DNA of 64,000 nucleotides from a plasmid: sequence record NZ_CP069398.1, one strand, 5' to 3'. This document shows positions 6,601-58,669 of the stretch, piece by piece. Every line of letters starts with the position of its first letter. The stretch's first letter is position 1. Under the pieces are notes generated by a model. It searched no databases. It was not told where the DNA came from and saw nothing but the letters and a program-made list of their open reading frames with translations. The position numbers and the translations under genes are program-made.

Positions 6601-6782
6601 GAATGAAAAAAGAGCTAACTATAGCTCTTTTTTCATTCTTATAATATATTGTAAACGCTAGAATATAATTGACAGTTTTTGCTCAACGTAATTTTACACT
6701 TTTGCTTCAATAAGCTAGAACTCTAGTAAAATAATAGAAGGTGTTATTTTACTGGGGGGACAGCGTTTTGGAGGAGAAGCTA

Positions 6783-32372: not shown

Positions 32373-32392
32373 TTTATTGAGGAGTACTTTCA

Positions 32393-33658: not shown

Positions 33659-33671
33659 GGAGGAAAAAGAA

Positions 33672-34004: not shown

Positions 34005-34201
34005 AGTTAAGATTAGTTGAATTATTTATACATTTGTTTACGCAAAACTTTTTCATATGAAGATACTTCGCTTTTCTTTCTTCGACTAGCTAGGTTGTTA
34101 GTTAAATGAGATCGGTAGCTTTACATTGAGAAGCATATGGCGTGAAATATTAACAGTTGTAAAAATTATTACAAGAGAAATGATTAAAGGGAGGAATTTT
34201 T

Positions 34202-34770
34202 ATGTCCATTAACACAGGGTCTAGAAGAGTGATTTTAGATTTAGCAGTTACTTTAGATGGATTTATTGAAGGGCCAAACGGAGAAATTGACTGGTGTATC
34301 ATGGATCCTGATATGGAGTTTACTCATTTCTTGAATCAAATTGATACTATTTTATATGGAAGAAAAAGCTACGAATTATGGGGAGAATACACTCCAAAAA
34401 CTGGAGATTCTGATACCGAAAAAGAAATGTGGGGATTAGTTCACAGCAAAGAAAAGTATGTTTTTTCTAGGACACAAAAAAGGGCTGATCATAAAGCAAT
34501 ATATATAAATGATAATATTTTGGAAGAAGTAAATAAATTAAAGAAAAAGCCTGGAAAAGATATCTAGCTATATGGTGGAGCAAGTCTTATTACAAATTTT
34601 ATAAATTTAGGGCTTGTAGATGAATTTAGATTATCGGTTCATCCTGTTGTTTTGGGAAGTGGAAAACCTTTATTTATTGACATAAAACAAAGGTTAAACC
34701 TTAAATTGGTTAATACAAAAACGTTTTCTTCTGGCGTTATCCAGCTGTGCTATCGCCTTAATGATAATTA
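34202..34770 (+). pseudogene. Dihydrofolate-reductase-like (RibD C-terminal domain / YwjB family) gene interrupted by an in-frame amber codon
   Basis: The frame continues ...KKKPGKDI*LYGGASLITNF.... TAG at 34565-34567 sits where the family has a conserved Trp (DIWLYGG). Confidence 0.6.
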
Positions 34771-34814
34771 ATGAAATTCAAGAAAGCTTTTCTAATAAGA
34801 GTAAACAGAAAAGA

Positions 34815-34890
34815 GTGATTAACCTGGAAGAAATAAAGGAGCAAGAAATCGAGCTTAACGAAGTGTATGACTATACTGAATTTCCGGATA
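34815..34890 (+). pseudogene. 5' fragment of a small zinc-ribbon protein gene (intact in copy B at 54518-54703)
   Basis: VINLEEIKEQEIELNEVYDYTEFPDK matches the copy-B N-terminus. It breaks at the 8-bp repeat ataaggtc. Confidence 0.6.
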
Positions 34891-34895
34891 AGGTC

Positions 34896-36131
34896 TTAAA
34901 TGGACTAAACTAATAAGAGGATATATGTTCAATATACGAGCATATATCCTCTTTTCTTATAAGTATTAGATTCGTTATTTAGATACTATACATATAGTTT
35001 AATATGTATATATTATAAAGGAGCTTATGTTTGTTACAAATGCAGGATGTAGCCTATAGTAGGAGACTCAATGAGGTCTTCAATCCGATCATTAATATGA
35101 CTTAGGAGGTGAGTGTTATGAGTTTTGTAACTTTGTAATAATAGGTATTAAGCAATCGGGCCAGTTTATGGAGGACCGGAAACATTACTTTGGATAAAAT
35201 GAAAGCATCAAAAAAATTGGAGGGTTCATACGTGACTGTTGAAGGTAAGCATGATATTGAAGGGCTTAAGGAAATCGGAAAAATCGTCGCTTTAACAATA
35301 AGTGAAATGAAAAATCAGACACGTGCCGGAATGACGACCAAAGAATTGGATGAAATCGGGGGACGCTTTTTAAAAAGATATGGTGCGGTCTCCGCACCAA
35401 AGATAACCTACAATTTTCCCGGTAACACATGCATTAGCATTAACCATGAAGTTGCTCACGGAATACCGGGGAATCGGAAGATTCAAGAAGGTGACCTAAT
35501 AAATATTGATGTCTCTGCTGAGTTAAATGGTTACTTTGCCGATGCAGGTCATTCCTTTCAGATTCCTTTATATAACCCTTCTGTAACACGTCTCTGTCAA
35601 TACACACACAATACCATGATGAAAGTTATTTCTTCACTTAAACATGGGGTGAGATTGAATGAAATCGGAAGAATTATTCAAAATGAAGCCCAAAAAGGTG
35701 GTTACAAGGTACTTACGGATCTTTGCAGTCACGGCATTGGAAGGTCTTTACATGAGGCACCTGAAGATATTTTACCTATCTATGACAAGTATGATAAACG
35801 GGTATTGAAAGAAGGTATGGTTATTACAATTGAGCCTTTTTTATCAACTGGAGCAGAGTATACAGTTGAAAGTTCGGATGGATGGACTTTATGTGTGCCC
35901 GATAATAGTCTTTGTGCACAATATGAGCACACAATAATTATTACAAGAGATCAACCGATAATTACAACGATAGCTTAGATATTGTTTTCAGATGTTAGGT
36001 CCATAGATGTTTAAGGAAGTTCATCAAACGGGCGTATTTGTTGAGCAAAGATTAAAAGGTTAATACATATTAGTTATTTACAATATGTATTAACCTTTAT
36101 TTTCTATGTTTTTTTGATTTGAATCTTGATA
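34896..36131 (+). other. 1.24 kb inserted segment carrying map, flanked by 8-bp direct repeats (ataaggtc), splitting the zinc-ribbon gene
   Basis: Direct repeats at 34888-34895 and 36132-36139. Copy B has a single contiguous gene at the equivalent position. Confidence 0.55.
35190..35978 (+). CDS. map: Methionine aminopeptidase type I (M24 family)
   Basis: 262 aa. Metal ligands in conserved positions (D..D...H...E..E): ...INIDVS..., HGIGRSLHE, ITIEPF. Confidence 0.8.
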   Translation: MDKMKASKKLEGSYVTVEGKHDIEGLKEIGKIVALTISEMKNQTRAGMTTKELDEIGGRFLKRYGAVSAPKITYNFPGNTCISINHEVAHGIPGNRKIQEGDLINIDVSAELNGYFADAGHSFQIPLYNPSVTRLCQYTHNTMMKVISSLKHGVRLNEIGRIIQNEAQKGGYKVLTDLCSHGIGRSLHEAPEDILPIYDKYDKRVLKEGMVITIEPFLSTGAEYTVESSDGWTLCVPDNSLCAQYEHTIIITRDQPIITTIA

Positions 36132-36145
36132 ATAAGGTCAGTGGC

Positions 36146-36243
36146 AGATGAGATAAATGCAATTCATCTTACTTCAAAAGTTCAGTAAAAGGTGGTATTT
36201 TCTTACGCGAATGTCGGGAATGCGGCATGAAGAAGAGTACCTA
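36146..36243 (+). pseudogene. 3' fragment of the split zinc-ribbon gene
   Basis: Nucleotide similarity to 54597-54703 (..CNSSYFKSSVK..FLRECRECSMKKS), here disrupted. Confidence 0.55.
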
Positions 36244-36370
36244 AATATAGATGTAGTTGTGTTTACTCATTTTTAGAATCTGAAATATATACCTTACTAC
36301 ACTGCCGATGCCTTTTATTACAATCTACTTTAGAAGTTAAGGCAGCCGTTGATTGCTCTTCCATTACCCT

Positions 36371-36772
36371 CTAATGATCACCTACTACTGCCTGTCCTGT
36401 CATCGTGAAAGTACGAAGTTTCCGAGGAATAAAAGCTCTTATCTCTTCTTCTTTATATCCGATTTGCAGTATTTTACGATCTTGTATAATAATAGGGCGT
36501 TTAAGTATAAAAGGATGACTCTTTATCAAATCATACAGACCCTGTAACGACAGTGTATCAATCTCTATATTTAACTTTTGAGGAATCTTTGACCTTGTAG
36601 AAATAATTTCATCTGTACCCTTTTCTGTCATACTAAGAATATTTTTAATTTCATCTTCTGTAATAGGTTCATACGATAGATTTCTTTCAATATAATCAAT
36701 TTGATGTTCCTCAAGCCAAGCCTTTGCTTTTCGGCAAGAAACGCAGCTGGTTGTCGTATATAGATTAATCAT
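36371..36772 (-). CDS. Spx/MgsR-family (ArsC-fold) transcriptional regulator paralog, copy A
   Basis: 133 aa. N-terminal CxxC ([17 protein letters not shown]) and a conserved RPIII..K.LQIGY segment. Confidence 0.8.
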
Positions 36773-36847
36773 TCTTTACACCTCGTCTATATGGATTTTT
36801 TTCTATCTTTAATTAATCAATGTAAATAAAAGTATATAGATTTCTAA

Positions 36848-39343: not shown

Positions 39344-39531
39344 ATAATAAAATACTTTTACTACTGGTAATCAAACTTATGTAAATAAGTTTCCTATATA
39401 ATATATGTAATCAGCGACTGTAAAATACTCAATAACAGCGATTCCAAATTCCCCAATAATAACAGATAATCGTTTCAAGACAACATCATGGATGGAGTGG
39501 AGAAACGGTGCTGAAGATTGGGGAGTTTTTT

Positions 39532-40770
39532 ATGATTAGAGAATTGTTTCAAAAAGGTTGGACGAAAACAGCTATTGCAGAAGCAACGGGTTTCGATCGC
39601 AAAACAGTCAGTAAATACCTAAAAGATAACCAGTTACCTAAGCGTAAAGGAAGTAAACAGAAAAAAGAAAGCAAATTAACCCCTTACAAACCGTATATAC
39701 TTGGACGGCTTAAAGAGGGTACCACTAATTGCGTAGTCTTATTAGAAGAAATACAAGCAATGGGTTATGAAGGTCAGCTCACAATCTTAAGAGATTTTGT
39801 TCGTCCTCTTCGCCAACAACCAAAGAAACAGGCAACCTTACGGTTTGAAACGCCACCTGGAAAGCAAGCTCAAATGGACTGGGCGTATGTCGGGAAGTAC
39901 TTAGTAAATGATGTGCTGCAAGATGTATATGGATTTATCATGATTTTGGGTTATTCCCGGATGAAATATGTAGAATTCACAACGAATATGAACCTAGAAA
40001 CTTTAATGAAATGCCATATGAATGCTTTCTCTTATTTTAATGGGATACCAGACCAAATCCTTTACGATAACATGAAAACAGTGGTGATCAAGCACAGCCC
40101 AGTGGAAGTTCGTTTTAATCGGAAATTCGAAGATTTCTTGGCTTACTATGGAATTGTGCCAAAGGCCTGCCGTCCAAGGAGGCCTCAAACAAAAGGGAAA
40201 GTAGAAAGAACGGTAAAGTATTTAAAAGATAACTTTTTTCAAAGAAAACATGAACCAACACTGAATGCGTTAAACGAGGATATAAAAGAATGGTTAAATC
40301 AGGTGGCTAATAAAAAGGAAAATCAGACAACAAATGAAGCACCCTTTAAGAGGTTTGAGCAGGAACAGAAGTTCCTGAAGGCCTGGGGGGAAAAACCTTT
40401 ATTTCCTACTTCCCATTGGGAGCATAGAGAGGTTAGTCGAGATTGTTTTATATCATACGGGGGAAAACAATACTCCGTTCCTTATCGTTATGTTGGACAG
40501 ACCGTTAAAGTAAAGGAAACATTAAATCATCATATAGAAATATACGATGAACATGAATGTATAGCAAAACATCCTATTCTTACTGGAAACGCAACGACAC
40601 ATATCCGGATGGAACATTATCAAGGTTTACAGAAGACAGAGATGGGTCAGAAAGAGAAACACATTGAAGGTTTGGCGACCGATGTTTCTCAATCACAAGA
40701 CCCATCCCCTAAAGTAGAGAAACGTCCTCTCGCTGCTTACGCAGCATTAGAAGAAGGTGAACATGTATGA
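39532..40770 (+). CDS. istA: IS21-family transposase IstA
   Basis: HTH (TKTAIAEATGFDRKTVSKYL) and a DDE core. The track ORF starts at 39508. Confidence 0.85.
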   Translation: MIRELFQKGWTKTAIAEATGFDRKTVSKYLKDNQLPKRKGSKQKKESKLTPYKPYILGRLKEGTTNCVVLLEEIQAMGYEGQLTILRDFVRPLRQQPKKQATLRFETPPGKQAQMDWAYVGKYLVNDVLQDVYGFIMILGYSRMKYVEFTTNMNLETLMKCHMNAFSYFNGIPDQILYDNMKTVVIKHSPVEVRFNRKFEDFLAYYGIVPKACRPRRPQTKGKVERTVKYLKDNFFQRKHEPTLNALNEDIKEWLNQVANKKENQTTNEAPFKRFEQEQKFLKAWGEKPLFPTSHWEHREVSRDCFISYGGKQYSVPYRYVGQTVKVKETLNHHIEIYDEHECIAKHPILTGNATTHIRMEHYQGLQKTEMGQKEKHIEGLATDVSQSQDPSPKVEKRPLAAYAALEEGEHV

Positions 40771-41531
40771 TGAACGAGCTCTTAATTGACCGGCTAAGGA
40801 AGCTTGGTTGGCACCATACAGCTAACCAACTAGATAGTGTATTAGAAGACGTATCTAAAGATAATGTATCATATTCTGAATTTCTTCACACCATCGTTTT
40901 ACAGGAAATAGAGAAGCAAGAGTCGGGACAATTGGAAAAACGAATGAAACAGGCAAAACTCCCTTATAACAAAACGATTCACGACTTTGATTTTACATTT
41001 CAACCAAGTCTTAGTGAGAAACAAGTAAAAGAGACACTTACGTGCCGATTTATCTCGAATGGAGAAAACCGAATTTTACTTGGTCCACCTGGTGTAGGGA
41101 AAACGCATTTAGCTATTTCTTTCGCGGTGGAGGCCATTACCAAAGGATATACAGCTCTCTTCTTAACCTCAGATGACTTAGTAGAACAATGCCGAAAGGC
41201 AAATGAGAAAGGTACCCTCCATCGGCTTGTCAATCGATGGAGCCGGCCAGATATTTTAATTATAGATGAAGTAGGATATTTTCCATTTGACGAACTCACA
41301 GCAAATGTTTTCTTTCAAGTTGTATCTAAACGGTATGAGAAAGGAGCAATGGTTTTAACATCAAATAAATCCTATCTTGATTGGGGAAACGTCTTTGGAG
41401 ATGAAGTGTTGGCAACAGCTGTATTAGATCGGCTTCTTCATCATGCGATTACATTTAATATAAAGGGAGATTCATATCGTCTACGCGAAAAGAAAAAGGC
41501 AGGAATTTATCCTGCCAAGTTGACTACTTAA
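40767..41531 (+). CDS. istB: IS21-family helper ATPase IstB
   Basis: Walker A LLGPPGVGKTHLAISF. Walker B ILIIDE. Confidence 0.9.
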   Translation: MMNELLIDRLRKLGWHHTANQLDSVLEDVSKDNVSYSEFLHTIVLQEIEKQESGQLEKRMKQAKLPYNKTIHDFDFTFQPSLSEKQVKETLTCRFISNGENRILLGPPGVGKTHLAISFAVEAITKGYTALFLTSDDLVEQCRKANEKGTLHRLVNRWSRPDILIIDEVGYFPFDELTANVFFQVVSKRYEKGAMVLTSNKSYLDWGNVFGDEVLATAVLDRLLHHAITFNIKGDSYRLREKKKAGIYPAKLTT

Positions 41532-41594: not shown

Positions 41595-43715
41595 TCAGAT
41601 ACTATCTAGTATTTCATTACGCCAACCCATATTAAAATTAGTTGATAACTGATTAAACGATCCTTTTATCTTTTTAAGAAATTTAGTTTCATCAGTCCCA
41701 TTTTGTAACATTTTTAGAAGTTCTTCATTTTTCAAAGGCATAATCGTAACTGTCTCAGCAAACGTATCATTTTTTTTCGAAGATTGTAATGGAACAGTTG
41801 CAACAGCTCGCCAAATATTAATAGTATTTTCATCAAGTTCATCTGCAATGAATAATGTAGTTACTTCTTTAGGTGCAGATTCAATTGTTAAGTTAGTTGC
41901 ATGTCGCAAAACAGGTTCCCATTCTCCACGTTTTTGAGCGTGCTTATTCATTAATGTGACTTCAAGCATTAAAATATAATCACCATAATCAATTACTATA
42001 TCTCCTGCTCCCCCGCCAGCATGAGTCTCAGGTTCAAAATCAGCACTCATTGATAAATTTAAACTAGAAAACAAATCAAATTTTTGCGCACTAATATGAT
42101 ACCAAGCAATTCCAACAATATACTCAAAGATAGTTGGGACGTCGGTGTTTTCAGCAACAATTTTTTGTATTCTTGAATCGTTACTTCGATCTGAAAAAAG
42201 AGGCAAAATTTCGATTATCTTTTCTTTTGGATAGTGATCTTCAATATGCTTAATAAAGGCTTTACTTGTTTGATTAAATAATGTTCGGCGAATTTCTTCC
42301 TCGCTAGATAAATCTAAGTCGTCCTGAATCTCAAGAATCGCTTTATCAACTTTTTCATCTTCATACTCAAAAATCTCTTCAAGTGAAAGGTGATTTAAGA
42401 AAGGAGAAATGCTTTTCTTTTCATAGCTTTCATATTCTTCGGCTGTCGAATTTCCAAATATTAATTTCTCTAGATCAATTTCGGCAAAAAATTTCTTCCA
42501 TAAATCACGTTGTACTAGTTCAACTACACCGTTTTTAAAACTAATAATACTTGTAACTTTCATTACACGACGCGTAACATCACCATACTCTTGAATACCA
42601 TCATGACGTTTTGAAGCCTGAAATTGTAAAAATAGTTTCCGGTTTATATCTTGGTTTGTGAGAATGTCTAACTCTTCATTAAGCTCCATAAACTTAATAA
42701 CGTTTGTTTTATCACTTTTATCAAAGGCGAAAACATTACGGCCGAAACCAAATGCTTTATTAAGCATTGCTTTTTTCTGAGCATCAGAAAATAATTCTAC
42801 AATTCTTTTAAGGCTCTCCTCTGTTCGCTCAGAATTGAATACAATTAAACATTCATAAAACTCTCGATAAACCCTTATAGCTTTCTCACTTTTCCCACTT
42901 TTAAAGTTTTCAGAGAATATTTCCTCTGACATTGGTAGAGATTCATTTGCTACTGTGTCCAATGCTTCGCTCTCGAAAAATGGAATATATTCTCTTTCTA
43001 ATTTCTGAGCATGGCCATTTAAAAACTCTTTAACAAAAATAGAGGGTGTTATTGGTAGATAAGGATTCAACATTTGAATCATCGTAACAAACAAATCTTG
43101 GTCTACTCGTGGATAATTTAATAGAATATACATTGCCATCAACATAGGAGAATAATATTTTTCTCCCTCTTTTGAGTAGACTCTTAGCTTTAATAATTGT
43201 CGGAAAAATAATAAGTTTGTTTCATCAATTGGCAATAGATTCTCAAATCTACTTCTTCGTAATTTCTTTCCGTGTATCCATGATTTCCCTACTGGTGAAA
43301 TCTGACGTTGTTCATCTGCTAAACCAATTTTGACTAAGTTACTAGAGTAGTGACGTGCCCTTCCTTCAATAGAGCTATCTAAATCAGCATACAATTGCTT
43401 TAAATATGTCTTTTTCTTTAGATAACTAATATCTCTTTTAGCAAACTCAGCCTTTATAAATGGGTCTTCCATAGCTTCAACAAACTTATCGTACTTTGGA
43501 TGCTGTTTGAATACTTCTGGAGAGTTTTCTATTGCCAGCTCATAGAATCTAAACTGAGTAGATTCATTTGGATAACGTCCCCATACGCCTGATTCACTTT
43601 CAGCATAAACTTGTTCTAATATATTCGTATAAATTTTGTATGCATTAATTACATCGCTTCTACGCCCGTTCGTATCAAATAAATTAAATACCTTTTCTAA
43701 ATTATTAACTTTCAT
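41595..43715 (-). CDS. Large type IIS-like restriction endonuclease paralog 1 (AlwI/PleI/Nt.BstNBI-like architecture)
   Basis: 706 aa. C-terminal block PTIFEYIVGIAWYHIS...HAGGGAGDIVIDY...LEVTLMNK (PD-(D/E)XK-like) is shared with the ORF at 47743-49701. Adjacent to a two-domain adenine MTase. Confidence 0.55.
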   Translation of the reverse strand: MKVNNLEKVFNLFDTNGRRSDVINAYKIYTNILEQVYAESESGVWGRYPNESTQFRFYELAIENSPEVFKQHPKYDKFVEAMEDPFIKAEFAKRDISYLKKKTYLKQLYADLDSSIEGRARHYSSNLVKIGLADEQRQISPVGKSWIHGKKLRRSRFENLLPIDETNLLFFRQLLKLRVYSKEGEKYYSPMLMAMYILLNYPRVDQDLFVTMIQMLNPYLPITPSIFVKEFLNGHAQKLEREYIPFFESEALDTVANESLPMSEEIFSENFKSGKSEKAIRVYREFYECLIVFNSERTEESLKRIVELFSDAQKKAMLNKAFGFGRNVFAFDKSDKTNVIKFMELNEELDILTNQDINRKLFLQFQASKRHDGIQEYGDVTRRVMKVTSIISFKNGVVELVQRDLWKKFFAEIDLEKLIFGNSTAEEYESYEKKSISPFLNHLSLEEIFEYEDEKVDKAILEIQDDLDLSSEEEIRRTLFNQTSKAFIKHIEDHYPKEKIIEILPLFSDRSNDSRIQKIVAENTDVPTIFEYIVGIAWYHISAQKFDLFSSLNLSMSADFEPETHAGGGAGDIVIDYGDYILMLEVTLMNKHAQKRGEWEPVLRHATNLTIESAPKEVTTLFIADELDENTINIWRAVATVPLQSSKKNDTFAETVTIMPLKNEELLKMLQNGTDETKFLKKIKGSFNQLSTNFNMGWRNEILDSI

Positions 43716-43761
43716 TTCTTTCCCTCTTATCGTTGTATAATAACATTTTATAACTTAATAC

Positions 43762-44745
43762 CTATTTGTAATCCTTGCCTATATGACTTCTTTTTGGTAT
43801 TGGATACTTCTCCTGATTAGAATAATACTTAAGCCAAAATTCGATATTTCGGATTTCTTTAGGAAATGTTGTTAAGTATTGCTTCGCAGCTACAGGGTCA
43901 GTATTCATCTTTTCTAGCCATGAAACCATGTCTTTGTAAGTAACTTTATATGAAATATCACCCATTATACCTTTATCTTCATCCAAATCAACTACTTCAA
44001 TGATCGATAAATCTTCCGTCTTGTCATTTTTATTATAATTAACGAGGTATAATTCCCCTTCTAGTTTTTGCTTGGCTCTCCATAATGAGATATATTTTTG
44101 TCGATTATCAATTTTGCGAGGATTTTTCCAGGAAGGCTTTTCTTTCTTCATCTTTTTTGCAAATTCCTCTTGCTCCCTATCAGAAATCCATGCATACCGC
44201 ATAGGATGAGCCTGGGTATTTTCTATTGGATTCTTTCCTTTTTGTTTTGTTTCATTATTTAAAAATTCAACGAGAGTTTTGTTTATATCATCAAATATGT
44301 CGAAGTCGAAACCATAGGTAGACTCTTTACCCAATGCTTCCTTTGTAATACTTAAACCATTGTCATCTAAACAGAAACTAATTTCATGTACTTCCTTCAA
44401 TATTTCATTTATGTAAGGATCACCTTCATTATCAGTAGCTGAGCCAAGAGGCTTAGACTTTAAAACGGAGTTATTCAAGGCCTCTCCATTTTTCGATAAA
44501 AACCATTGTTTGTACTCATTCCATTTATATGTTTTATTTTTACCGTTACTCCAAACTCTAACACCATTTTCATTCCTATAATTATCATTATATTTAACAA
44601 AAAATAGAGATTCTTTTGAAATTTTAGAAAGAGATTCAAATTTTCTTCTTACAAACTGTTCATTATCGTTAGAATCATTATAAAACTCAAAAAAAACCAG
44701 TTGTCCACTAGCTTCAAACTGCACTCTATCTACCGTATAAATCAT
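43762..44745 (-). CDS. Hypothetical protein co-transcribed upstream of endonuclease paralog 1
   Basis: 327 aa, lysine- and asparagine-rich, no recognisable motif. 46 bp upstream of the 41595-43715 gene on the same strand. Confidence 0.4.
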   Translation of the reverse strand: MIYTVDRVQFEASGQLVFFEFYNDSNDNEQFVRRKFESLSKISKESLFFVKYNDNYRNENGVRVWSNGKNKTYKWNEYKQWFLSKNGEALNNSVLKSKPLGSATDNEGDPYINEILKEVHEISFCLDDNGLSITKEALGKESTYGFDFDIFDDINKTLVEFLNNETKQKGKNPIENTQAHPMRYAWISDREQEEFAKKMKKEKPSWKNPRKIDNRQKYISLWRAKQKLEGELYLVNYNKNDKTEDLSIIEVVDLDEDKGIMGDISYKVTYKDMVSWLEKMNTDPVAAKQYLTTFPKEIRNIEFWLKYYSNQEKYPIPKRSHIGKDYK

Positions 44746-45262
44746 TTTTTCTCCTTTTCTATGTATCTTATTTAATAATTCAAGTATAGCAAAACGGATA
44801 AGGTTACAGTTAGCTATATTAAAATTTATTTATCTTTATAATTTGTTATAAAAGCCCTTGTTATCTCGTTTTGCTTAGTTTATAATTCACAATTTTGATT
44901 ATACAAAAGAAAGAAGATTTCTCTATCTTAAAGCTATTAAAGAATAAAAACTACCTGTAGGTACTTAAACAAAGTAAATCTAATATTTCAATTAAGTAAT
45001 TGCACAAGATAGAAGGGTTGTCCTTAATAATATTATTATGGTATATTGAACATTATTAAGATGCGCGTTTTGGAAATAATTCAACCATTTAATGTATAAC
45101 TTGCTATTAACTCGAGAAATTTTAAGCGTAATCAGCTCTACATTAATATAGGGAAAGGACATATATATTTCCTTAGTAAAAGCATGCTCATTGGTGAAAC
45201 CAACTAATTTATATCTAACAGGTAAATGATTTATAAATACCTTTTATTTGGGAGGAATTCAA

Positions 45263-47344
45263 TTGCTAAAAATACAACAACGTAGATACTTGGGGAGCAA
45301 AGCAAAATTGCTTAATTTCATATCAGATATACTCAAAAAGGAAAAAATAGAATATAATCGATTTGTTGATTTATTTGGTGGTACAGGCGTGGTAGGCCAT
45401 TATTTTAATAAATCAAGCGAAATTATAATGAATGATTTACTTTATTCTAATTATTTAATCCATGTTGCTTTTATGGGTGACGAAAAAGTAAATGATGAAT
45501 TAGTCAAATCAATACTAAATGAATATAATAGTCTTAAATTTGATGAATTACCTGAAAATTACTTTTCAGATAATTTTTCCAATACGTACTTTAGTCATAA
45601 AAATTGCAAATTAATTGGTTACATACGAGAAGATATTGAAAGACGAAAGAAATCAGGAACAATTAACCATAGAGAGTTTGCCTATCTTGTTACCTCTCTT
45701 ATGTATGCTATGGATAGGATAGCTAATACTGTAGGGCATTACGACGCTTATAGAAAAAAGCAAGATGACTTAAATAGAGAGATGCGCTTAGATACTCTTG
45801 ATATTGAAGCTGCTGAATTAAATAAAGGTAATGAAATATATAATATGGACGCAAATTCACTTGTTGCCTCTCTTAAATCTGATGTTGTATATTTAGATCC
45901 TCCCTACAATTCAAGACAGTATTCAGACTGTTATCATTTACTCGAGAACGTAGCAGAATGGAAAAAACCTGACGTAAAAGGAGTAGCAAGGAAGATGGAT
46001 CGTTCTCATCGTAAAAGTAAGTATTGTATGAAAACTGCTGCTGAGACTTTCTCTGACCTTCTTGATAAATTGGATACAAAATATATTTTAGTCAGTTATA
46101 ATGATATGGGTGAGAATGGATGTAGTCGTTCTCAGGCACGTATGTCAGATCATGAGATTATTTCTGCATTAGAACGTAAAGGAAGAGTAACAGTTTACAG
46201 CACAGAATTCAAACAGTTTACTACAGGGACTTCCACTAAAGAAGATTTACAGGAACGTATATTTGTATGCGAAGTAGGGGTGTATTCCAATCCTTCTACA
46301 GAGGATTCGCAGTTGCTTAATAATGAAGGTATAGAAAGTATTTCTACCAGAAAGGGTAGTGTTAAGAGAAAAACTTCTAATAAGAAGAAATATGTAAAAT
46401 CTCCATTGAACTATACTGGTGGTAAGTATCGATTACTTGATCAAATCATTCCTTACTTCCCCAAAGATATTGAGAATTTTTATGATGTGTTTTCAGGTGG
46501 CGCTAATATAGGAATTAATTCTATAGCTCAAAATACCGTATGTATAGATTATAATGAGAAAGTTATTCGAATACAGCAACTTATTCAGAGGAAAAACTTT
46601 GATGAACTTCATAATATTCTTATTGATAAAATTGAGGAATTTGGCCTCAGTCGATCATATGAAAATGGATATGAAAAGTATGGTTGTGAGTCTACAAAAG
46701 GTTTGGGATCATACAACAAGGAGAAGTACAAACTTCTTAAACAAATGTATAATACCTTACCGATAAGCGAAGAGAAGGATATTTTACTTTTACTTCTAAT
46801 TATCTATGGCTTTAATAATCAAATTCGCTTTAACAGTAAAGGCGATTTTAATTTACCTGTTGGAAAACGTGATTACAATGGAAGTGTTCGAAATAATTTG
46901 TTACGTTTCAGTGAGGCTTCGAAAGAAAAAAGCATTACCTTTAAAGTAGATGATTTCCGTAGCTTAAAAGATATAAAATTATCTAAGAATGATTTCGTTT
47001 ATCTAGATCCCCCCTATTTGCTTGGGACTGCTAGTTATAATGAATCAGGTGGGTGGGCTATTAAGGATGAGACAGAACTTTTAGAGGTACTTGATAAATT
47101 AGATGAAAATGGGATTAAGTTTGCGCTTTCGAATGTATCTGAGCATAAAGGGCAAGAAAACATTTATTTAAAAAATTGGGTTGCCGAAAGAAGTCACTAT
47201 ATGCATAAGTTGAACTTCAATTATAATAATTCTAATTACCAATCGAAGGCTAAAGAAAAACAGACCATTGAAGTACTTGTGACAAATTACAAACCATCTA
47301 TTCTTATAGAAAACGAAGAGCAATTGAAATTAGAGTTAGTCTAA
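45263..47344 (+). CDS. Fused two-domain N6-adenine DNA methyltransferase (two D12/Dam-class domains), type IIS-style
   Basis: Two DPPY motifs (VVYLDPPYNS and FVYLDPPYLL). N-terminal RYLGSK (motif I-like of Dam-class MTases). Probable TTG start at 45263 with GGGAGG RBS. The track frame starts at 45248. Confidence 0.8.
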   Translation: MLKIQQRRYLGSKAKLLNFISDILKKEKIEYNRFVDLFGGTGVVGHYFNKSSEIIMNDLLYSNYLIHVAFMGDEKVNDELVKSILNEYNSLKFDELPENYFSDNFSNTYFSHKNCKLIGYIREDIERRKKSGTINHREFAYLVTSLMYAMDRIANTVGHYDAYRKKQDDLNREMRLDTLDIEAAELNKGNEIYNMDANSLVASLKSDVVYLDPPYNSRQYSDCYHLLENVAEWKKPDVKGVARKMDRSHRKSKYCMKTAAETFSDLLDKLDTKYILVSYNDMGENGCSRSQARMSDHEIISALERKGRVTVYSTEFKQFTTGTSTKEDLQERIFVCEVGVYSNPSTEDSQLLNNEGIESISTRKGSVKRKTSNKKKYVKSPLNYTGGKYRLLDQIIPYFPKDIENFYDVFSGGANIGINSIAQNTVCIDYNEKVIRIQQLIQRKNFDELHNILIDKIEEFGLSRSYENGYEKYGCESTKGLGSYNKEKYKLLKQMYNTLPISEEKDILLLLLIIYGFNNQIRFNSKGDFNLPVGKRDYNGSVRNNLLRFSEASKEKSITFKVDDFRSLKDIKLSKNDFVYLDPPYLLGTASYNESGGWAIKDETELLEVLDKLDENGIKFALSNVSEHKGQENIYLKNWVAERSHYMHKLNFNYNNSNYQSKAKEKQTIEVLVTNYKPSILIENEEQLKLELV

Positions 47345-47350
47345 ATAACC

Positions 47351-47400
47351 ATTAGCACAAGAATCTTTTCATGACCTTGTGCTAATGGTTATTGATTTTT
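47351..47400 (+). terminator. Terminator after the methyltransferase gene
   Basis: accattagcacaag ... cttgtgctaatggt 14-bp stem plus T-run. Confidence 0.6.
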
Positions 47401-47742
47401 ATTTGAGGCTTTATAGTTATTATTTAGATTATCCTAAAATTTTTTTTATATATTAAGGTTTCATGCTTCCAATGAAACTTCTATTTTGATTTGCATACAT
47501 AGTGAGTTTTATTAACCATTTACACTTTAACTTTTTTATAAAAATCAAATAATGAGTTATAAAATCCAGTTCGTTTATAGTGCTTGAAAATTATTATTTC
47601 AATTTCTTGACCCTTAAATAAAAGATTTATTTTATATCCAATTGCAATAAAAAGATAAGTAGTTATTTATTCGCCTTCTTTTTGTTTCTGAGAAAAGATA
47701 TACTAGAATATATAGACAATAAGTCGCAGGAGGAAAACAACC

Positions 47743-49701
47743 ATGTTTGAGTTCAAATCCTATTCATGGGTGATAGGAACCACTAGTTTTCGTGTTAAAG
47801 AAATTAATTATAAAATTGAACAGCAACTTTTTACACTCAAAGAATTATTCGGAGAATATCCAAATGAAAAATGGCAAAATCTCCAAGAAGTATATTATGA
47901 TATGCTTTTTGAAAAGAACCTTATTATAGGTAATGCCCAAAGGAAAGATAAAGATGCAAGAGAAAAAACTTCTGGCTTAAAAGAATTAGGTTTAATTACT
48001 GAAGATAGACACCTTACTGACGTAGGAGAAGAAATATTAAGGCTGGTAAAAGATGATGAAATAGATCAATCAAATGATTTTATGATTGACTTAGATGCTT
48101 TTGTTTATTTAAAACAATTATTAAAGCTTTATGTACGTGACCCTGAATTCAAGATTCGTCCCTTCGTTGCGCTATTATATTTGCTAGATAAGTTAGGTTA
48201 TCTTACAGAAGATGAATTCACCTACCTTTTACCTCTTTGTAAAAACAAAGAAGATGTTAAAAGAATGGCTAGTTTAATAGAACAGACCAGAAAGGGTAAT
48301 TTAAGTTTTAACAGTATAATTATTAAGTTTATGCGCAAAATGCCCAATTATCGAAAAGCATTAGACTATTTTTTAAAACAAGAAACAGTGACATGTGACT
48401 TGGTTTGTGAAATTGGTATGAATCGAAAATCTCGTAAATACGACGCTCCATACTATGATTTATTTATTGCACTTAAAAAGGCAGCTGTAACTGAAACTAT
48501 TACAGAAATTGAAATGAATAGCGTCTTAAATATTTTGAAAAAATTGAAAAAACCAAGTGCTGAGTGGAAACTTCTTTTATTTGGAAAAACCAAAAGGTCT
48601 TCCGAGAGATTAGAAAATTTTAAAAAAAGAATGTTTAAATTATTTTCTTCTAAAGATGAATCAGCTTTTCGTAATACTTTTTTTAATATTTTACACTTAT
48701 TTAAATGGAAAGCTAACTTAGTTGAGTATGCAGATTTAAACAAGCGATATTTTTCATTAGCAGATATTCTTTTATTCCAGGATGGTAAAGTTGAACTTAC
48801 TCTTTTCTCAAAATATTTCTTTCACTTGTGTATAGATGAATTATTAGAAGAAAAAATAGTCCCATCCCTTCTCCCTCGTAACCTAGCTTTACAAGAAATA
48901 TCGCCAGCACTTAATATTAAAACTGAAGAGGTAGTTGAACTAGTTAGTAAAGAGACTGGTAAATTATTGGATATACCTACGATGCGTACTTATTTTCAAA
49001 AAGAGAAAGAAGAGCAGTTACTTGATCTTATCAATCAGAAGTTTAACCCGAACAAACTTATTCAATTATTTACATGGATTGAAGGCAGAGAAGACAAACA
49101 AGTACAAGAATACGTTACCGACAATGCAGATATTCCGACAATTTTTGAATATCTACTAGGCATTAGCTGGTATCACATTAGTGGAGAGTCTATTAATCTC
49201 ATGGATTCATGGAATTTAAGTTTAGATGCAAATTTATTGCCTAAAAGACATGCTGGGGGAGGAGAGTCAGATATTGTTATTGATTATCCAGCCACAGATT
49301 TTTATCCACAACATAAGTTAATGATTGAAGCAACTCTTACTAATAAAACTAATCAAAGACGGGCAGAAATGGAACCTGTAAGCCGTCATTTAGGAACGCT
49401 AAAAGCCAAGCATGCAAACCAGGAAGTATATGCTGTGTTCGTTTCAAACCATTTAGATAGAAACGTTATTGTTGATCTAAGAAGTAGAAAAGCTGTGCCT
49501 TTTCACGATAGAATAACGGATACTTGGATTGAAAACAATAAAATTATTCCATTGAATACTAAAAATATAAAAATGATACTGGAAAAGAAAATACAATACT
49601 GGAGAATGTACAAATTCTTTTCAGTAGCATATGAAAATGAAATACCCTATCAAGATTGGTACGAGAAAACAATCAATTTACCTTTACAAGAGTACGTTTA
49701 A
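47743..49701 (+). CDS. Large type IIS-like restriction endonuclease paralog 2
   Basis: 652 aa. C-terminal PTIFEYLLGISWYHIS...HAGGGESDIVIDY...IEATLTNK. N-terminal region colinear with paralog 1 (for example AREKTSGLKELGLI versus ARHYSSNLVKIGLA). Confidence 0.55.
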   Translation: MFEFKSYSWVIGTTSFRVKEINYKIEQQLFTLKELFGEYPNEKWQNLQEVYYDMLFEKNLIIGNAQRKDKDAREKTSGLKELGLITEDRHLTDVGEEILRLVKDDEIDQSNDFMIDLDAFVYLKQLLKLYVRDPEFKIRPFVALLYLLDKLGYLTEDEFTYLLPLCKNKEDVKRMASLIEQTRKGNLSFNSIIIKFMRKMPNYRKALDYFLKQETVTCDLVCEIGMNRKSRKYDAPYYDLFIALKKAAVTETITEIEMNSVLNILKKLKKPSAEWKLLLFGKTKRSSERLENFKKRMFKLFSSKDESAFRNTFFNILHLFKWKANLVEYADLNKRYFSLADILLFQDGKVELTLFSKYFFHLCIDELLEEKIVPSLLPRNLALQEISPALNIKTEEVVELVSKETGKLLDIPTMRTYFQKEKEEQLLDLINQKFNPNKLIQLFTWIEGREDKQVQEYVTDNADIPTIFEYLLGISWYHISGESINLMDSWNLSLDANLLPKRHAGGGESDIVIDYPATDFYPQHKLMIEATLTNKTNQRRAEMEPVSRHLGTLKAKHANQEVYAVFVSNHLDRNVIVDLRSRKAVPFHDRITDTWIENNKIIPLNTKNIKMILEKKIQYWRMYKFFSVAYENEIPYQDWYEKTINLPLQEYV

Positions 49702-50085: not shown

Positions 50086-50433
50086 TTAATACGGGCCTTT
50101 AATTCTTTTCAAAATTTGTTCAGTGATAGTTAAACATTGTTTTTTCGTAAGTTCAATTTTGAATGTTCCATTAAATATAGCTTGGATCTCTCCCACTAAA
50201 TCGTTTGGAGTTGGATTCTTATACGCTGCAGATAAGACTCTTAATGCTTCATAATAATATTCATCATAACTATTAGTTGAAGAAATTTCATTATATAATT
50301 CTAAGGGATCCCATGTATTAATAAGATGTAAAATTATTTCTTGATCTTCATCAAAAATTTTTTTCAATGTTTCTTTTTTCAAGTTTTTCAACCCTCCTAA
50401 ATTAAATTTATATATGCCAATACCTAAAAACAA
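50086..50433 (-). CDS. Hypothetical small protein
   Basis: 115 aa. No recognisable motif. Confidence 0.35.
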   Translation of the reverse strand: MFLGIGIYKFNLGGLKNLKKETLKKIFDEDQEIILHLINTWDPLELYNEISSTNSYDEYYYEALRVLSAAYKNPTPNDLVGEIQAIFNGTFKIELTKKQCLTITEQILKRIKGPY

Positions 50434-51100: not shown

Positions 51101-51385
51101 GTGTCCGAAATGGAACGTAAACGTGCAGGCAAAACATACAATGATGAGTTTAAGAAAACGATTGTGGATTTATATCATGCAGGAAACTCTGTTAAAAATT
51201 TAAGCAGCGAATATGGCGTATCAGAAGTAACAATCTATAAGTGGGCGAAGGCATTTACACCTATCAGCTCAGAAGAAGGATCTCTAACGCCCAAAGAATT
51301 AGCTGAGATCCAGAAGGAAAACCTTCGGTTAAAACAAGAGTTAGACATTCTAAAAAAGGCTATGGCCATATTCGCGAAAAAGTAA
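51101..51385 (+). CDS. IS3-family transposase OrfA
   Basis: 94 aa HTH / leucine-zipper protein. Confidence 0.8.
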   Translation: MSEMERKRAGKTYNDEFKKTIVDLYHAGNSVKNLSSEYGVSEVTIYKWAKAFTPISSEEGSLTPKELAEIQKENLRLKQELDILKKAMAIFAKK

Positions 51386-51444
51386 CGGAAGCAGAGCTCA
51401 ACCATTTTATCGAGAAATATAAAGAACAATACAGTGTTCAGAAA

Positions 51445-52260
51445 ATGTGCGAAGTGTTAACGATTCCAAGAAGTAGCTACTACCATTCGTTCAAAAAGAC
51501 AGTATCAAACCGCGAACAGGAAAATCGGAAGCTAACGAAAGAAATCGAACGAATTCATGTGAAAAGTAAAGCACGTTATGGCGCTCCAAAAATTCATAAG
51601 ATGTTAGTAAACAACGGGTGTGACCTAAGCCTAAAGCGTGTTCAGCGCTTAATGAAACAAGCAGGAATTCGTTCGATTACAAAGAAAAAATACCGTCCCT
51701 ATCCGTCAAAAGAAAAGGTGGTACAACTGACGAATCTGTTAAAACGAGATTTTTCTACACAGACCATTAATGAAAAATGGGTGGCAGATATTACGTACAT
51801 TCCTACAGTAAAAGATGGTTGGTGTTATTTAGCATCCGTATTGGATTTACATTCTAAAAAAATCGTGGGCTATTCTTTTTCTCGTTCCATGACGTCTGAA
51901 CTAGTCATTGAAGCACTTCAAAACGCTTACACTAATCAAAAGCCCCGAAAGGGCTTACTTCTTCATACGGATCTTGGCTCACAATACACGAGCAGTGAGT
52001 TTACTCAGCATGTCCACAAGTATCAAATGGAACAGTCTTTCAGCCAGAAAGGCTGCCCTTATGATAATGCCTGTATCGAGTCGTTTCATGCCATATTAAA
52101 AAAAGAGGAAGTCTATCATACGCAATACCTAGATTATTCAGCTGCCAAAGTAGCCATGTTTCAGTTTATAGAAGGATGGTATAACCGAAACAGAATCCAT
52201 AGTAGCCTCGGCTATCAAACCCCTCAAGCGATTGAGGATCAAATAAGAAAAACAGCTTAA
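51445..52260 (+). CDS. IS3-family transposase OrfB (catalytic DDE domain; expressed as OrfAB by -1 frameshifting)
   Basis: rve-type integrase core (WVADITYI ... HTDLGSQYTS ... E). Confidence 0.8.
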   Translation: MCEVLTIPRSSYYHSFKKTVSNREQENRKLTKEIERIHVKSKARYGAPKIHKMLVNNGCDLSLKRVQRLMKQAGIRSITKKKYRPYPSKEKVVQLTNLLKRDFSTQTINEKWVADITYIPTVKDGWCYLASVLDLHSKKIVGYSFSRSMTSELVIEALQNAYTNQKPRKGLLLHTDLGSQYTSSEFTQHVHKYQMEQSFSQKGCPYDNACIESFHAILKKEEVYHTQYLDYSAAKVAMFQFIEGWYNRNRIHSSLGYQTPQAIEDQIRKTA

Positions 52261-52619: not shown

Positions 52620-52640
52620 TTTATTTAAGGAGTTCTTTTA

Positions 52641-53906
52641 ATGGATGATGGGCAGCTATCAAACAGAATCATTATTTGTATAGACATGAAATCGTTTTTC
52701 GCCTCGGTTTCCTCTGTTATACGGGGGTTAGATCCGTTGAAAACAAGGCTTGCGGTGGTAGGAGATATCAAAAGGTCAGGATCGGTTGTGTTAGCTGCCA
52801 CACCTTTATTAAAGAAAGAAGGGATCAAAACAGGAAGTCGTCTTTTTGACATTCCTAAAAGGAAAGATATCCATGTGGTAAATCCATCTATGGAGAGATA
52901 TATCAAGGCTTCGAACTATATTTCGAGTTTGGTGTTACAGTATGTGGCTCCTGAAGACTTTCATGCGTATAGCATTGATGAGTTATTTATTGATGCGACA
53001 GCTTCTTTGCATTTATTCGCTAAAACACCAGAAGAACTGGCCCATAAAATTATCAACGAGATTTATCGTAAGACACGGCTGACAGCTACCGCAGGTATCG
53101 GTCCGAATCTCTTACTGGCGAAGGTGAGCTTAGATCATGAAGCCAAGAATAGCCCAACAGGAGTTGCCTATTGGCGATATGAGGATATTCCCTTTAAGTT
53201 GTGGCCCATTCATCCGATGAAGGATTTCTGGGGGATCTCGTCTGCTACAGAAAGACGCTTAAATCGTTTGGGCATTCACTCTATCAAAGAACTCGCTCTT
53301 TCTTCAAAAGAGATGTTACAAAAGGAATTTGGCATACTAGGCGAAGAGTTGCACCAACATGCGAATGGCATTGATTACAGTCGCATTTCTGATGTGTACA
53401 TTCCTAGCTCTCGTTCCTTTGGAAAGAGTCAGATTCTATTCCGTGATTATACAAACCGAAAAGAAGTGGAGTTATTGCTGTTAGAGCTATTGGACGATGT
53501 ATGTTTTCGTTTACGCATGCATCAAGTGGTGGCTCAGACTGTTCATTTATCCATTGGCTACAGCAAACAAACAGGTGGCGGCTTCTCCAGACAAAAGAAA
53601 ATGGGGAGAGCTTCGAACTTAAGCCAAGATATCTTTCCATACTGTTTAACGATTTTACATACGCATGATAGTGGCATGCCTATTCGCTCCATTGGCATTT
53701 CATTGTCCAACACTAGTATTCAAGAAGAGGAGCAAATGAGCTTATTTGAGGACATCGATCAGCGTGAAAGAGACTATGCTCTTGCCAAAACGATTGATGA
53801 CATTCGGCTGCGTTATGGCAAGAATAGTGTACTACGTGCGTCTAGTCACCTTCCTTATTCAACAGCTCGCTATCGAAACGGCCTTATGGGTGGCCATAAG
53901 GCTTAA
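52641..53906 (+). CDS. Y-family DNA polymerase, copy B
   Basis: 421 aa, roughly 90% identical to copy A. Confidence 0.85.
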   Translation: MDDGQLSNRIIICIDMKSFFASVSSVIRGLDPLKTRLAVVGDIKRSGSVVLAATPLLKKEGIKTGSRLFDIPKRKDIHVVNPSMERYIKASNYISSLVLQYVAPEDFHAYSIDELFIDATASLHLFAKTPEELAHKIINEIYRKTRLTATAGIGPNLLLAKVSLDHEAKNSPTGVAYWRYEDIPFKLWPIHPMKDFWGISSATERRLNRLGIHSIKELALSSKEMLQKEFGILGEELHQHANGIDYSRISDVYIPSSRSFGKSQILFRDYTNRKEVELLLLELLDDVCFRLRMHQVVAQTVHLSIGYSKQTGGGFSRQKKMGRASNLSQDIFPYCLTILHTHDSGMPIRSIGISLSNTSIQEEEQMSLFEDIDQRERDYALAKTIDDIRLRYGKNSVLRASSHLPYSTARYRNGLMGGHKA

Positions 53907-53919
53907 GGAGGAAAAAGAG

Positions 53920-54252
53920 ATGGAACCTAGAGGAATGAAAAAATGGCGTCCATTCGCTACTATGCCAGAGCAATACATAGAATTAAAGGAAATGATAAAT
54001 AAGCAAGCAGAAATAGCTCAACCTGTTTTAACAGAAGAGCAAATGGAACAGATGAATTTCACCTTAATTGAAGCCTTACATACAAATAAACAAGTGTACC
54101 TTACTTATTATAAGAGAGGCCAATGCATAACAGAGACAGGATTCATTCAGTTTTTTGATTCTCTTGGGGATTTATTTATTTTCATTGATGACGTATTTGA
54201 GTTAAAGAATAGAATGAGATTAAGCGAGCTAATCGATGTTCGCTTGGCTTAG
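53920..54252 (+). CDS. yolD: YolD-like protein, copy B
   Basis: Starts MEPRGMKKWRPFA with AAGGAGG RBS. Confidence 0.75.
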   Translation: MEPRGMKKWRPFATMPEQYIELKEMINKQAEIAQPVLTEEQMEQMNFTLIEALHTNKQVYLTYYKRGQCITETGFIQFFDSLGDLFIFIDDVFELKNRMRLSELIDVRLA

Positions 54253-54303
54253 TTCCTGAAGAGATCGTATATAGGAAGCATTTATGTTGGTGGAGGTACA
54301 TTC

Positions 54304-54453
54304 ATGTACAATTTTAGAGTATACACGTTACGGGATGGTTCAAAGAGAATCATTAAACTAAAAGAAGGAGAATCATTTAAAGAGGAACTCCAAAGAGCAG
54401 GTATTCAAGAAACGCAAATTTTTCAGATGAAACTAGTGGCAAAACCAGAGTAA
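54304..54453 (+). CDS. Small hypothetical protein (49 aa)
   Basis: GGTGGAGG RBS 7 nt before the ATG. MYNFRVYTLRDGSKRIIKLKEGESF.... Below the track length cut-off. Confidence 0.3.
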   Translation: MYNFRVYTLRDGSKRIIKLKEGESFKEELQRAGIQETQIFQMKLVAKPE

Positions 54454-54517
54454 TTTTAACATGCCCCTTTTATATGGCTGTAATTGTGTTAGTCTAATAA
54501 AAGCCAAATAGAAAAGA

Positions 54518-54703
54518 GTGATCAACCTGGAAGAAATAAAAGAGCAAGAAATCGATTTTGATAAAGTGTACGACTATGCTGAATTTTCGGATAAGGTGAG
54601 TGGACGATGCGATAACTGCAATTCATCTTACTTCAAAAGTTCAGTAAAAAGTGGCGTTTTCTTGCGCGAATGTCGGGAATGCAGCATGAAGAAGAGTATC
54701 TAA
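54518..54703 (+). CDS. Small C4 zinc-ribbon protein
   Basis: 61 aa. CDNC ... CREC pairs. GTG start. The ortholog in copy A is split by the map insertion. Confidence 0.45.
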   Translation: MINLEEIKEQEIDFDKVYDYAEFSDKVSGRCDNCNSSYFKSSVKSGVFLRECRECSMKKSI

Positions 54704-54877
54704 GTATAGAGGATTATATAGTAAAAGGAGAAGGGTTTTTACCCTTCTCCTTTTTATGTAAATGTAGTTGTGTTTACTCATTTTTAGAATCTGAAATAAT
54801 CTATGCCTTCTGCTGATGCCTTTTATAACAAACTGCTTTAGAAGTTAAGGCATCCGTTGATCGCTCTTCTATTCCAC

Positions 54878-55285
54878 CTAAGAATTACCTACTTCTGACT
54901 GTTCCATAATAGTGAAGGTACGAAGTCTTCGGGGAATAAAAACTCGTATCTCCTCCTCTTTATATCCAATTTGTAACATTTTCTCATTTTGTATAATGGG
55001 TCGTTTAAGTATAGTAGGATGGGTTCTTAACAATTTATATAGCTCCGGTAACGACAGTTTATCTATCTCTATATTTAATTTTTGAAGTATCTTTGACCTT
55101 GTAGAAATGATTTCATCTGTACCCTCTTCTGTCATGCTAAGAATGCTTTTGATTTCATCTTCCTTAAGAGGATCATGTGATATATTTCTCTCAATATAAT
55201 CAATTTGATTTTCCTCAAGCCAAGCCTTTGCTTTTCGGCAAGAAGTACAGCTTGTTGTCGTATATAGATTAATCATTTTTCGCAC
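54878..55285 (-). CDS. Spx/MgsR-family regulator paralog, copy B
   Basis: 135 aa. [13 protein letters not shown] CxxC motif. Confidence 0.8.
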
Positions 55286-55498
55286 CTCATCAATATTTCT
55301 TTTCTCTTTAAAATCTTTGATTAATGAAATCGTATTTAAACCAAAAACTTATACCATGTATGTGTTACAGAAATTGAATTTAATTGCTATTCCACTAGAT
55401 GCAACAAGGTTATCCAGTTCATCACTTTTGCGCATTTTCCATAGCCTCGCTGCAGCTACAGATTTAGCAACGAGTGATTGATATATATGTTTTACATT

Positions 55499-58551: not shown

Positions 58552-58669
58552 TGGTAGGACCCCTATAAGCATTATCATTAACCTAGAACTGAATATGAAT
58601 ACACATTTTTAAAATATAATCTAGGAAATTGGAACCCTACAAAAATGCCTGTCGGAATTAATGCGTTTA

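Follow-up and report, generated by a model that had tools for sequence, protein, structure and literature searches.

The window analysed here, a stretch of 64 kb that makes up about one third of a 188,115-bp Priestia megaterium plasmid (sequence record NZ_CP069398.1), carries a restriction-modification (R-M) locus in which two AlwI-family nucleases, R_A and R_B, and a third, nuclease-like protein, X, are grouped with a single fused adenine methyltransferase, M. The four proteins are consecutive entries of the NCBI plasmid record (QSF35961–QSF35964), and the genes and the features between them are arranged as follows.

41595–43715, minus strand: R_A, AlwI-family nuclease of 706 aa (QSF35961).
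43762–44745, minus strand: X, nuclease-like protein of 327 aa (QSF35962, labelled 'hypothetical' in GenBank).
44746–45262, both strands: intergenic region from which the X-R_A operon and M diverge.
45263–47344, plus strand: M, fused two-domain N6-adenine methyltransferase of 693 aa (QSF35963).
47344–47393, plus strand: terminator-like hairpin with a U-rich tract, directly 3' of the M stop codon.
47743–49701, plus strand: R_B, AlwI-family nuclease of 652 aa (QSF35964).

The initial annotation of this locus described the two large proteins as colinear, and alignment bears this out, with 26% identity over 610 aa (BLASTP E = 1e-45). Both match the Pfam family RE_AlwI (PF09491), as had been anticipated, over nearly the whole of its 441-position profile; R_A scores 120 bits (1.6e-34; profile positions 2–438) and R_B 185 bits (2.3e-54; positions 2–439), the gathering cut-off being 23.1 bits. 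R_A also matches the PADLOC REase_II profile PDLC03557 (1.8e-123). The C-terminal block reported to be common to the two proteins is present, with the motifs PTIFEY..., HAGGG..DIVIDY and E(V/A)TL.NK, and the recognition domains are strongly diverged. Orthologues of R_A with 65–79% identity are found in Halalkalibacter, Psychrobacillus, Mesobacillus and Gracilibacillus. R_B belongs to a large clade (3265 matches) and is 70% identical to the nuclease of locus L034 (loci and contigs used for comparison carry L numbers throughout), 64% identical to a Fredinandcohnia protein and 51% identical, over the full length, to the nuclease of L036. Both proteins are full length relative to their homologues, and an AGGAGG Shine-Dalgarno sequence lies upstream of R_B.

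Comparison with the solved structure of Nt.BspD6I points to the location of the active sites. The alignment with R_A is confined to the C-terminal catalytic domain (E = 1.7e-9). The catalytic segment of Nt.BspD6I was aligned with R_A, R_B and 12 relatives, using MAFFT. The equivalents of Nt.BspD6I Glu418, Asp456, Glu469, Glu482 and His489 are kept in both proteins and in all 12 relatives; they correspond with Glu531, Asp572, Glu585, Glu598 and His605 in R_A and with Glu469, Asp510, Glu529, Glu542 and His549 in R_B. The alanine variants E418A and D456A of Nt.BspD6I are deficient in catalysis (PMC6261011). The earlier statement that the conserved acidic positions are intact thus stands, and neither copy has a substituted catalytic residue. 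The part of that statement concerning the lysine does not hold, as the lysine position of the (D/E)XK motif is occupied in the AlwI family by Thr (E-V/A-T), the same being true of Nt.BspD6I. This agrees with the statement in a review that BspD6I takes the residue for the classical lysine position from elsewhere in the protein (PMC4081073). We conclude from these alignments that R_A and R_B are AlwI-family, type IIS-like nucleases whose predicted active sites are intact.

M contains two MethyltransfD12 stretches (PF02086; 1e-61, 209 bits), as had been expected, each with a DPPY motif, and has an RYLGSK N-terminus. Residues 384–680 match the Dam-family profile TIGR00571 (144.7 bits, cut-off 114.85), and similarity to T4 Dam (E = 1e-32) is seen in the C-terminal domain. 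The open reading frame (ORF) list places the start at 45248 (698 aa), whereas the NCBI annotation uses a TTG codon at 45263 (693 aa); the latter is the probable start because a GGGAGG Shine-Dalgarno sequence precedes it at 45250–45255. In AlwI-type systems, an AlwI-family restriction endonuclease is paired with two strand-specific N6-methyladenine (m6A) methyltransferases fused in one chain (PMC4081073, PMC3526280). M fits such a system as a two-domain N6-adenine methyltransferase, the strand specificity of its domains being predicted. The family profiles of the nucleases and of M together support the original description of an AlwI-type, type IIS-like R-M locus.

The relationships of M separate the locus into two parts. 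M METHYLTRANSFERASE is equal in length to the methyltransferases that partner R_B-type nucleases in L004 and L034, with 59–60% identity, whereas its identity to the partners of R_A-type nucleases is 47–50%. The latter enzymes also carry an N-terminal extension of ~70 aa that is absent from M. Identity to the partners of N-type nucleases, a further group of AlwI-family proteins that match the PADLOC 'Type II nicking endonuclease' profile PDLC03393 with up to 1227 bits, is 47–50%. By these measures M is a member of the R_B lineage. In a six-frame scan of the whole window, M, X and the AlwI genes had no further copies or remnants. Given this lineage, and the presence of only one methyltransferase of this kind in the window, the locus reads as a complete M+R_B system to which an X-R_A module has been joined without a methyltransferase of its own.

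X and R_A lie on the same strand in one operon, with X 46 nt upstream of R_A, and this operon diverges from M across a region of ~0.5 kb. Promoters close to consensus are seen in that region on the plus strand (TTGTTA-17-TATAAT, 44858–44886) and on the minus strand (TAGAGA-16-TATAAT, 44925–44898), the number of promoter-like sites being no higher than expected from shuffled sequence, and a search of 44746–45262 for a controller-protein gene gave no plausible small ORF. The hairpin that follows M has an 18-bp stem and a U-tract, with a minimum free energy of −26.1 kcal/mol (z = −8.5); none of 200 shuffled sequences was as good. The spacer between M and R_B is 398 bp in the window, compared with about 85–96 bp in L004, L034 and L036. 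The hairpin has the features of an intrinsic terminator and would part M from R_B transcriptionally, so that R_B probably has its own promoter, as had been proposed for the paralogs.

Comparisons with other genomes show that each nuclease type belongs to systems that lack the other. An M-X-R_A arrangement with a methyltransferase of ~720 aa and no second AlwI gene is seen in Mesobacillus and Psychrobacillus, and M-R_A without X, again with no second AlwI gene, in Gracilibacillus. A Streptococcus-like genome has an R_A-like gene, X and M and likewise no second AlwI gene. R_A-type genes occur without any R_B-type gene in L006–L010 and L014. Conversely, R_B-type genes (those compared encode proteins 51–70% identical to R_B) occur without any R_A-type gene in L004, L034 and L036. 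The arrangement is M-R_B, with no second AlwI gene, in Fredinandcohnia, and M-R_B-X, without an R_A-type gene, in L036/37 and L030. L034, to which M and R_B of the window are most closely related, has M-R_B and no second AlwI gene, but retains a 144-aa remnant of X (6707–7141) adjoining an IstB gene of the IS21 family; an X gene was probably present in the R_B lineage at one time. Homologues of M are either fused or split into two proteins, M1 and M2.

Among the loci compared, R_A-type and R_B-type genes occur together only in the Priestia plasmid. The two do not co-vary, and each appears to be the nuclease of a self-contained system. That each paralog is found alone with its own two-domain methyltransferase argues against an obligate R_A/R_B heterodimer and thus against the heterodimeric or two-nickase enzyme that had been proposed at first. 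The fallback offered with that proposal, two enzymes that share one methyltransferase, fits both the single M of the window and the comparative data. Only one other locus with two AlwI genes was seen, an M1+M2+AlwI(731 aa)+X+R_A arrangement in Halalkalibacter, in which the 731-aa nuclease, with 28% identity to R_B and 24% to R_A, belongs to a separate clade. This locus is a second, independent composite.

Two further observations concern the surroundings of these relatives. In L035 (6681–7460), a 259-aa ORF downstream of an R_B-type nuclease corresponds to the recognition domain at the N-terminus of an N-type AlwI protein and is apparently the truncated remnant of a second nuclease, a further sign of nuclease turnover. 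We considered this ORF as a small subunit like that of BspD6I and rejected it, as it is a fragment of the recognition domain and not a catalytic domain. Several relatives lie in defence islands (L005:10698–17440, L008:14094–18121 and L035:11751–14636), where the neighbours include PLDc_2-DEAD/ResIII helicase-nuclease fusions, GmrSD and McrBC; DndB is found in L006/L007.

If one methyltransferase is to serve two nucleases, these must be restrained by the same methylation, and the methyltransferases themselves suggest that they are. Among thirteen methyltransferases from these loci, identity in both domains lies at 46–79%, and the pattern of relatedness does not track the nuclease clade. That of L005, which accompanies a 731-aa nuclease (R731), X and an R_A-type protein, is 79% identical to that of L015, which accompanies X and an N-type protein; that of L036, found with an R_B-type nuclease and X, is 57–61% identical to partners of R_A-type and N-type nucleases. 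For comparison, the isospecific M.BtsCI, M.FokI and M.StsI share 48–62% identity (PMC2831314). Transitive support for a common specificity comes from L036, whose methyltransferase falls in the main clade and whose nuclease is related to R_B at a level (51% over the full length) seen in isoschizomers such as EcoRI and RsrI (PMC4081073). We infer from these relationships that a single methylation keeps R_A, R_B and their relatives in check, in which case one M can serve both R_A and R_B; the nucleases seem to be interchangeable modules that share a single methylation specificity.

The site itself can only be guessed at. The fused methyltransferases of AlwI, EacI and GmeI act on GGATC/GATCC (PMC4081073, PMC3526280), and GGATC is no more than a guess for the Priestia locus, as other AlwI-family enzymes recognise GAGTC or GCATC. 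Observed/expected ratios in the window (GGATC 1.02, GAGTC 1.09, GGATG 0.90) are uninformative on the site. A characterised SfaNI-like system of Caldicellulosiruptor was dropped as a guide to specificity, its methyltransferases being of the beta class (N-terminal DPPY) and not of the D12 type. As a separate observation, AGCGG/CCGCT is scarce in the window, with 3 occurrences against 22 expected (z = −4.1, maximal-order Markov model), and CCGC is low too; this may be the footprint of some other host restriction system.

The gene inventory given originally was correct for R_A, R_B and M but overlooked X, the third nuclease-like gene. X matches the PADLOC profile PDLC03429, a REBASE-derived profile named 'Type II restriction enzyme' (4.3e-36), whereas searches of Pfam, NCBIfam, PHROG and the PDB sequences gave no match. 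The X family is small, with 64 representative clusters, and its invariant residues are Lys98, Asp149, Glu160 and Lys217, together with Asp147 and the motif H180-P-x-R-Y. An AlphaFold2 model of X (predicted template modelling score 0.82) gives only weak, Hjc/RecU-like matches in a fold search, and the best match of the family profile to PDB sequences is a non-significant, SET-domain-like one (E = 0.18). The SET-like match involves the motif N-x-x-A-H-P-M-R-Y ... L-V-N-Y-S-D, and the model shows a weak, non-significant fold resemblance to YTH (m6A-reader) domains and to DpnI. These resemblances are probably noise, though odd for a protein of an m6A system. Assignment of X as a BtsCI/BstF5I-type enzyme was rejected, since the catalytic residues of BtsCI reach position 405 and the motif set is different.

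In about 12 independent lineages, which cover three AlwI clades, X has an AlwI-family gene as its direct neighbour, in either order and at spacings from −11 (an overlap) to about 490 nt. The partner is R_A-type in the window, L005, L006, L008 and L014/L027, R_B-type in L030 and L036/37 (with the remnant in L034), and N-type in L015, L016, L029 and L042; a methyltransferase with X and no large partner was not found at any locus with adequate flanks. At the edge of the family, in two further lineages (L038–L041, e.g. L040:1821–7933), X (PDLC03429, 1.4e-37) lies 3–10 nt downstream of a gene for a fusion of ResIII/SNF2 and Eco57I-methylase parts, 1,486 aa long with an N-terminal DUF4145, and neither a D12 methyltransferase nor an AlwI gene was found near these pairs. 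Here a helicase-methylase R-M enzyme may receive its nuclease activity from a separate protein, in trans. The X homologues of L038–L041 are of 300–320 aa and are followed by a 226-aa ORF weakly like an N6-methyltransferase.

An orphan X of 314 aa, with all invariant residues kept, is found in one gut-metagenome lineage (L018–L025, e.g. L022:3889–4833). Its neighbours, a Crp-like regulator gene and a gene for a phosphotransferase system (PTS) EIIC component, represent a housekeeping setting, and neither a methyltransferase nor an AlwI gene was found within these contigs; the orphan genes have too few substitutions for a dN/dS estimate. That X otherwise always lies beside a large DNA-recognising partner, that these partners are of unrelated kinds, and that X is nevertheless tolerated alone is best explained if X is a cleavage subunit that has no sequence specificity itself. 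X is thus probably a trans-acting cleavage subunit, and a better candidate for a second-strand partner than the second paralog.

The R-M block lies between two insertion sequence (IS) elements, as follows.

39508–41531, plus strand: IS21-family element, IstA and IstB (Pfam rve/Mu-transpos_C_2; IstB_IS21, 2.2e-84), at the left boundary of the block.
51101–52260, plus strand: IS3-family element, OrfA and OrfB (Pfam HTH_Tnp_1, rve), to the right of the block.

The distance from the end of the IS21 element to the R_A stop codon is 63 nt. Further out, two IS4-type (DDE_Tnp_1) copies form an inverted pair with 1,657-bp arms that are 100% identical (26774–28430 and 56912–58568), enclosing a segment of ~28.5 kb that includes the R-M locus in a composite-transposon-like layout. 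By the criterion of identical flanking IS copies, the locus probably lies within an IS-bounded composite segment that is predicted to be mobile. Diverged direct repeats, 85–90% identical, are present at 32377–36788 and 52625–55292; each encodes a 421-aa ImpB/UmuC-type Y-family polymerase, and a YolD-like gene is present in at least the left copy. The flanking IS21 and IS3 elements and the duplicated SOS modules described in the initial annotation, which had suggested probable mobility, are thus confirmed. The same R_A/X/M/R_B block is found on short-read contigs from at least two other sequencing runs (L001, L002), which end at flanking IS elements, including the IS21 element at the left boundary; a search of PLSDB with the R-M locus gave no match. 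The IS-rich surroundings fit a recent assembly of the composite locus. Between R_B and the IS3 element lies an ORF of the DUF1871 family (115 aa, 50086–50433, minus strand), followed by a strong terminator-like hairpin (49969–49943), and this ORF travels with the R-M block on L001 and L002.

We consider it probable that the locus is a composite cluster, made up of an M+R_B system and an X-R_A module, in which independent AlwI-family nucleases of the same or nested specificity stand under one M and X acts as a subunit. M would methylate the two strands of an asymmetric site and would protect the host against both R_A and R_B. M and R_B would represent a complete system of the R_B lineage, with the R_B promoter located downstream of the terminator, whereas X and R_A would be the nuclease operon of a second system, of M-X-R_A layout, whose methyltransferase is absent here; the operon was presumably imported by IS-mediated rearrangement. 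R_A and R_B would not depend on one another, each using its own N-terminal domains to bind DNA and its own C-terminal PD-(D/E)XK-type site to cut it. X would provide the second-strand cut in concert with the neighbouring AlwI-type protein, in a type IIT-like manner comparable with BspD6I.

Several known systems resemble parts of this arrangement. AlwI, EacI and GmeI (GGATC 4/5) likewise combine an AlwI-family endonuclease, in which recognition is N-terminal and the cleavage domain C-terminal, with a fused methyltransferase, whereas the Priestia locus has two AlwI-family nucleases of different clades, and X, under one methyltransferase. In Geobacter, an uncharacterised 333-aa ORF lies between M.GmeI (GGATC) and the AlwI-like endonuclease GmeIP (PMC3526280, the 2012 methylome paper). 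This M-ORF-R order is that of the M-X-R_A relatives of the locus, a likeness of layout alone, and no Geobacter-named sequence is present among the X-family clusters. In BspD6I, site recognition and the top-strand nick are the work of the AlwI-family large subunit, and the small protein encoded by the adjacent gene, inactive alone, cuts the other strand (PMC3017599, PMC6261011). Both BspD6I/BstNBI (GAGTC 4/6) and the X + AlwI-type pairs thus have a gene of small-subunit type beside an AlwI-family gene. Another parallel is offered by the type IIT enzymes BtsI and BsrDI, in which a large recognising subunit acts with a small, unrelated catalytic subunit that is active only in the complex. Their two methyltransferases, separate or fused, provide a further point of comparison; however, they are not members of RE_AlwI, and X has no detected similarity to their small subunits.

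Three observations weigh against the role of X as a cleavage subunit. X is dispensable both for R_A-type systems (Gracilibacillus) and for R_B-type systems (Fredinandcohnia, L034). X (about 300–340 aa) is unrelated in sequence or fold to ss.BspD6I (186 aa), which is a paralogue of the catalytic domain of its large subunit. Finally, in the subfamily to which X of the window belongs, Asn replaces a Lys present in most family members (EFLK to EFLN).

The dispensability of X is also what would be expected if R_A, R_B and X were three independent sequence-specific enzymes of identical or nested specificity under one methyltransferase, X being a self-sufficient type II enzyme. The name of the PADLOC profile favours this explanation, at 327 aa X is big enough for DNA recognition of its own, and SsuDAT1I reportedly provides a precedent for stacked isoschizomeric R genes. 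It is nonetheless unlikely, given that a large recognising partner adjoins X wherever a methyltransferase is present and the flanks are adequate, that the ResIII-Eco57I fusions which X homologues also partner are necessarily of different specificity, and that an autonomous endonuclease would be hazardous where the intact orphan X is found with no methyltransferase nearby.

The locus could also be a plain M+R_B system in which X-R_A is a silent or decaying passenger that no longer functions, its methyltransferase having been lost in an IS-mediated event. The window indeed lacks the cognate R_A-type methyltransferase, an IS21 element abuts the 3' end of R_A, and the truncated X beside IstB in L034, the closest relative of R_B, shows that such modules do decay. 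We give this explanation little credence, however, since R_A and X are full length with all catalytic and invariant residues kept, promoter-like and Shine-Dalgarno contexts are present, and the identical four-gene block recurs in the other sequencing runs as well as in the NCBI plasmid record.

Still less probable is that the site recognised by R_A, with or without X, differs from that of R_B and is protected by a methyltransferase encoded beyond the window, despite the great divergence of the recognition domains, the modest identity (47–52%) between the M clade and the R_A-partner methyltransferases, and the fraction of the plasmid that was examined. The methyltransferases form a tight family that does not parallel the nuclease clades; the transitive argument from R_B and M applies here too; Halalkalibacter repeats the layout of one methyltransferase set with two AlwI genes; and R genes are normally closely linked to their M genes.

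Least probable of all is the obligate heterodimer or nickase pair, each paralog cutting one strand of one asymmetric site: although both are full length with intact catalytic residues and share one methyltransferase, and although AlwI and MlyI cut both strands by dimerising through their cleavage domains (PMC3017599), so that homologous domains at one site could in principle pair, the closest relatives of R_A and R_B are single nucleases with their own methyltransferases, the two genes here are separate transcription units on opposite strands with a terminator after M, and 26% identity between members of two separately widespread clades, amid IS-rich flanks, indicates recent juxtaposition rather than co-evolved subunits.

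A two-paralog heterodimeric type IIS enzyme would, if true, be a new architecture, but it is not what the evidence favours. The locus is instead a clear example of nuclease modules swapped and stacked around a conserved methyltransferase specificity. A comparable stacking is reportedly found in SsuDAT1I of Streptococcus suis, for which Sekizaki and colleagues are said to have described, in 2001, two isoschizomeric R genes with one methyltransferase set, all within one cassette of horizontal origin, and in similar loci; SsuDAT1I is a type IIP GATC system with DpnII/MboI-like enzymes, unlike the Priestia locus. Such stacking bears on how R-M systems diversify and on how nuclease genes survive the loss of their own methyltransferase.

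The most interesting aspect of the locus is the X family, which is uncharacterised and restriction endonuclease-like and accompanies AlwI-type nucleases. We tentatively suggest that it could be a new family of trans-acting cleavage subunits that make no choice of site themselves, serving at least three AlwI clades as well as the ResIII-Eco57I fusions; a heteromeric X+R_A enzyme would then stand beside a self-sufficient R_B, and many of the AlwI-type proteins with X as neighbour might be natural strand-specific nickases when alone. Should X prove to be the subunit that cuts the second strand, its AlwI-type partners would be candidates for natural nicking enzymes, useful as reagents, and X would be another answer, unrelated to ss.BspD6I, to the problem which that protein solves.

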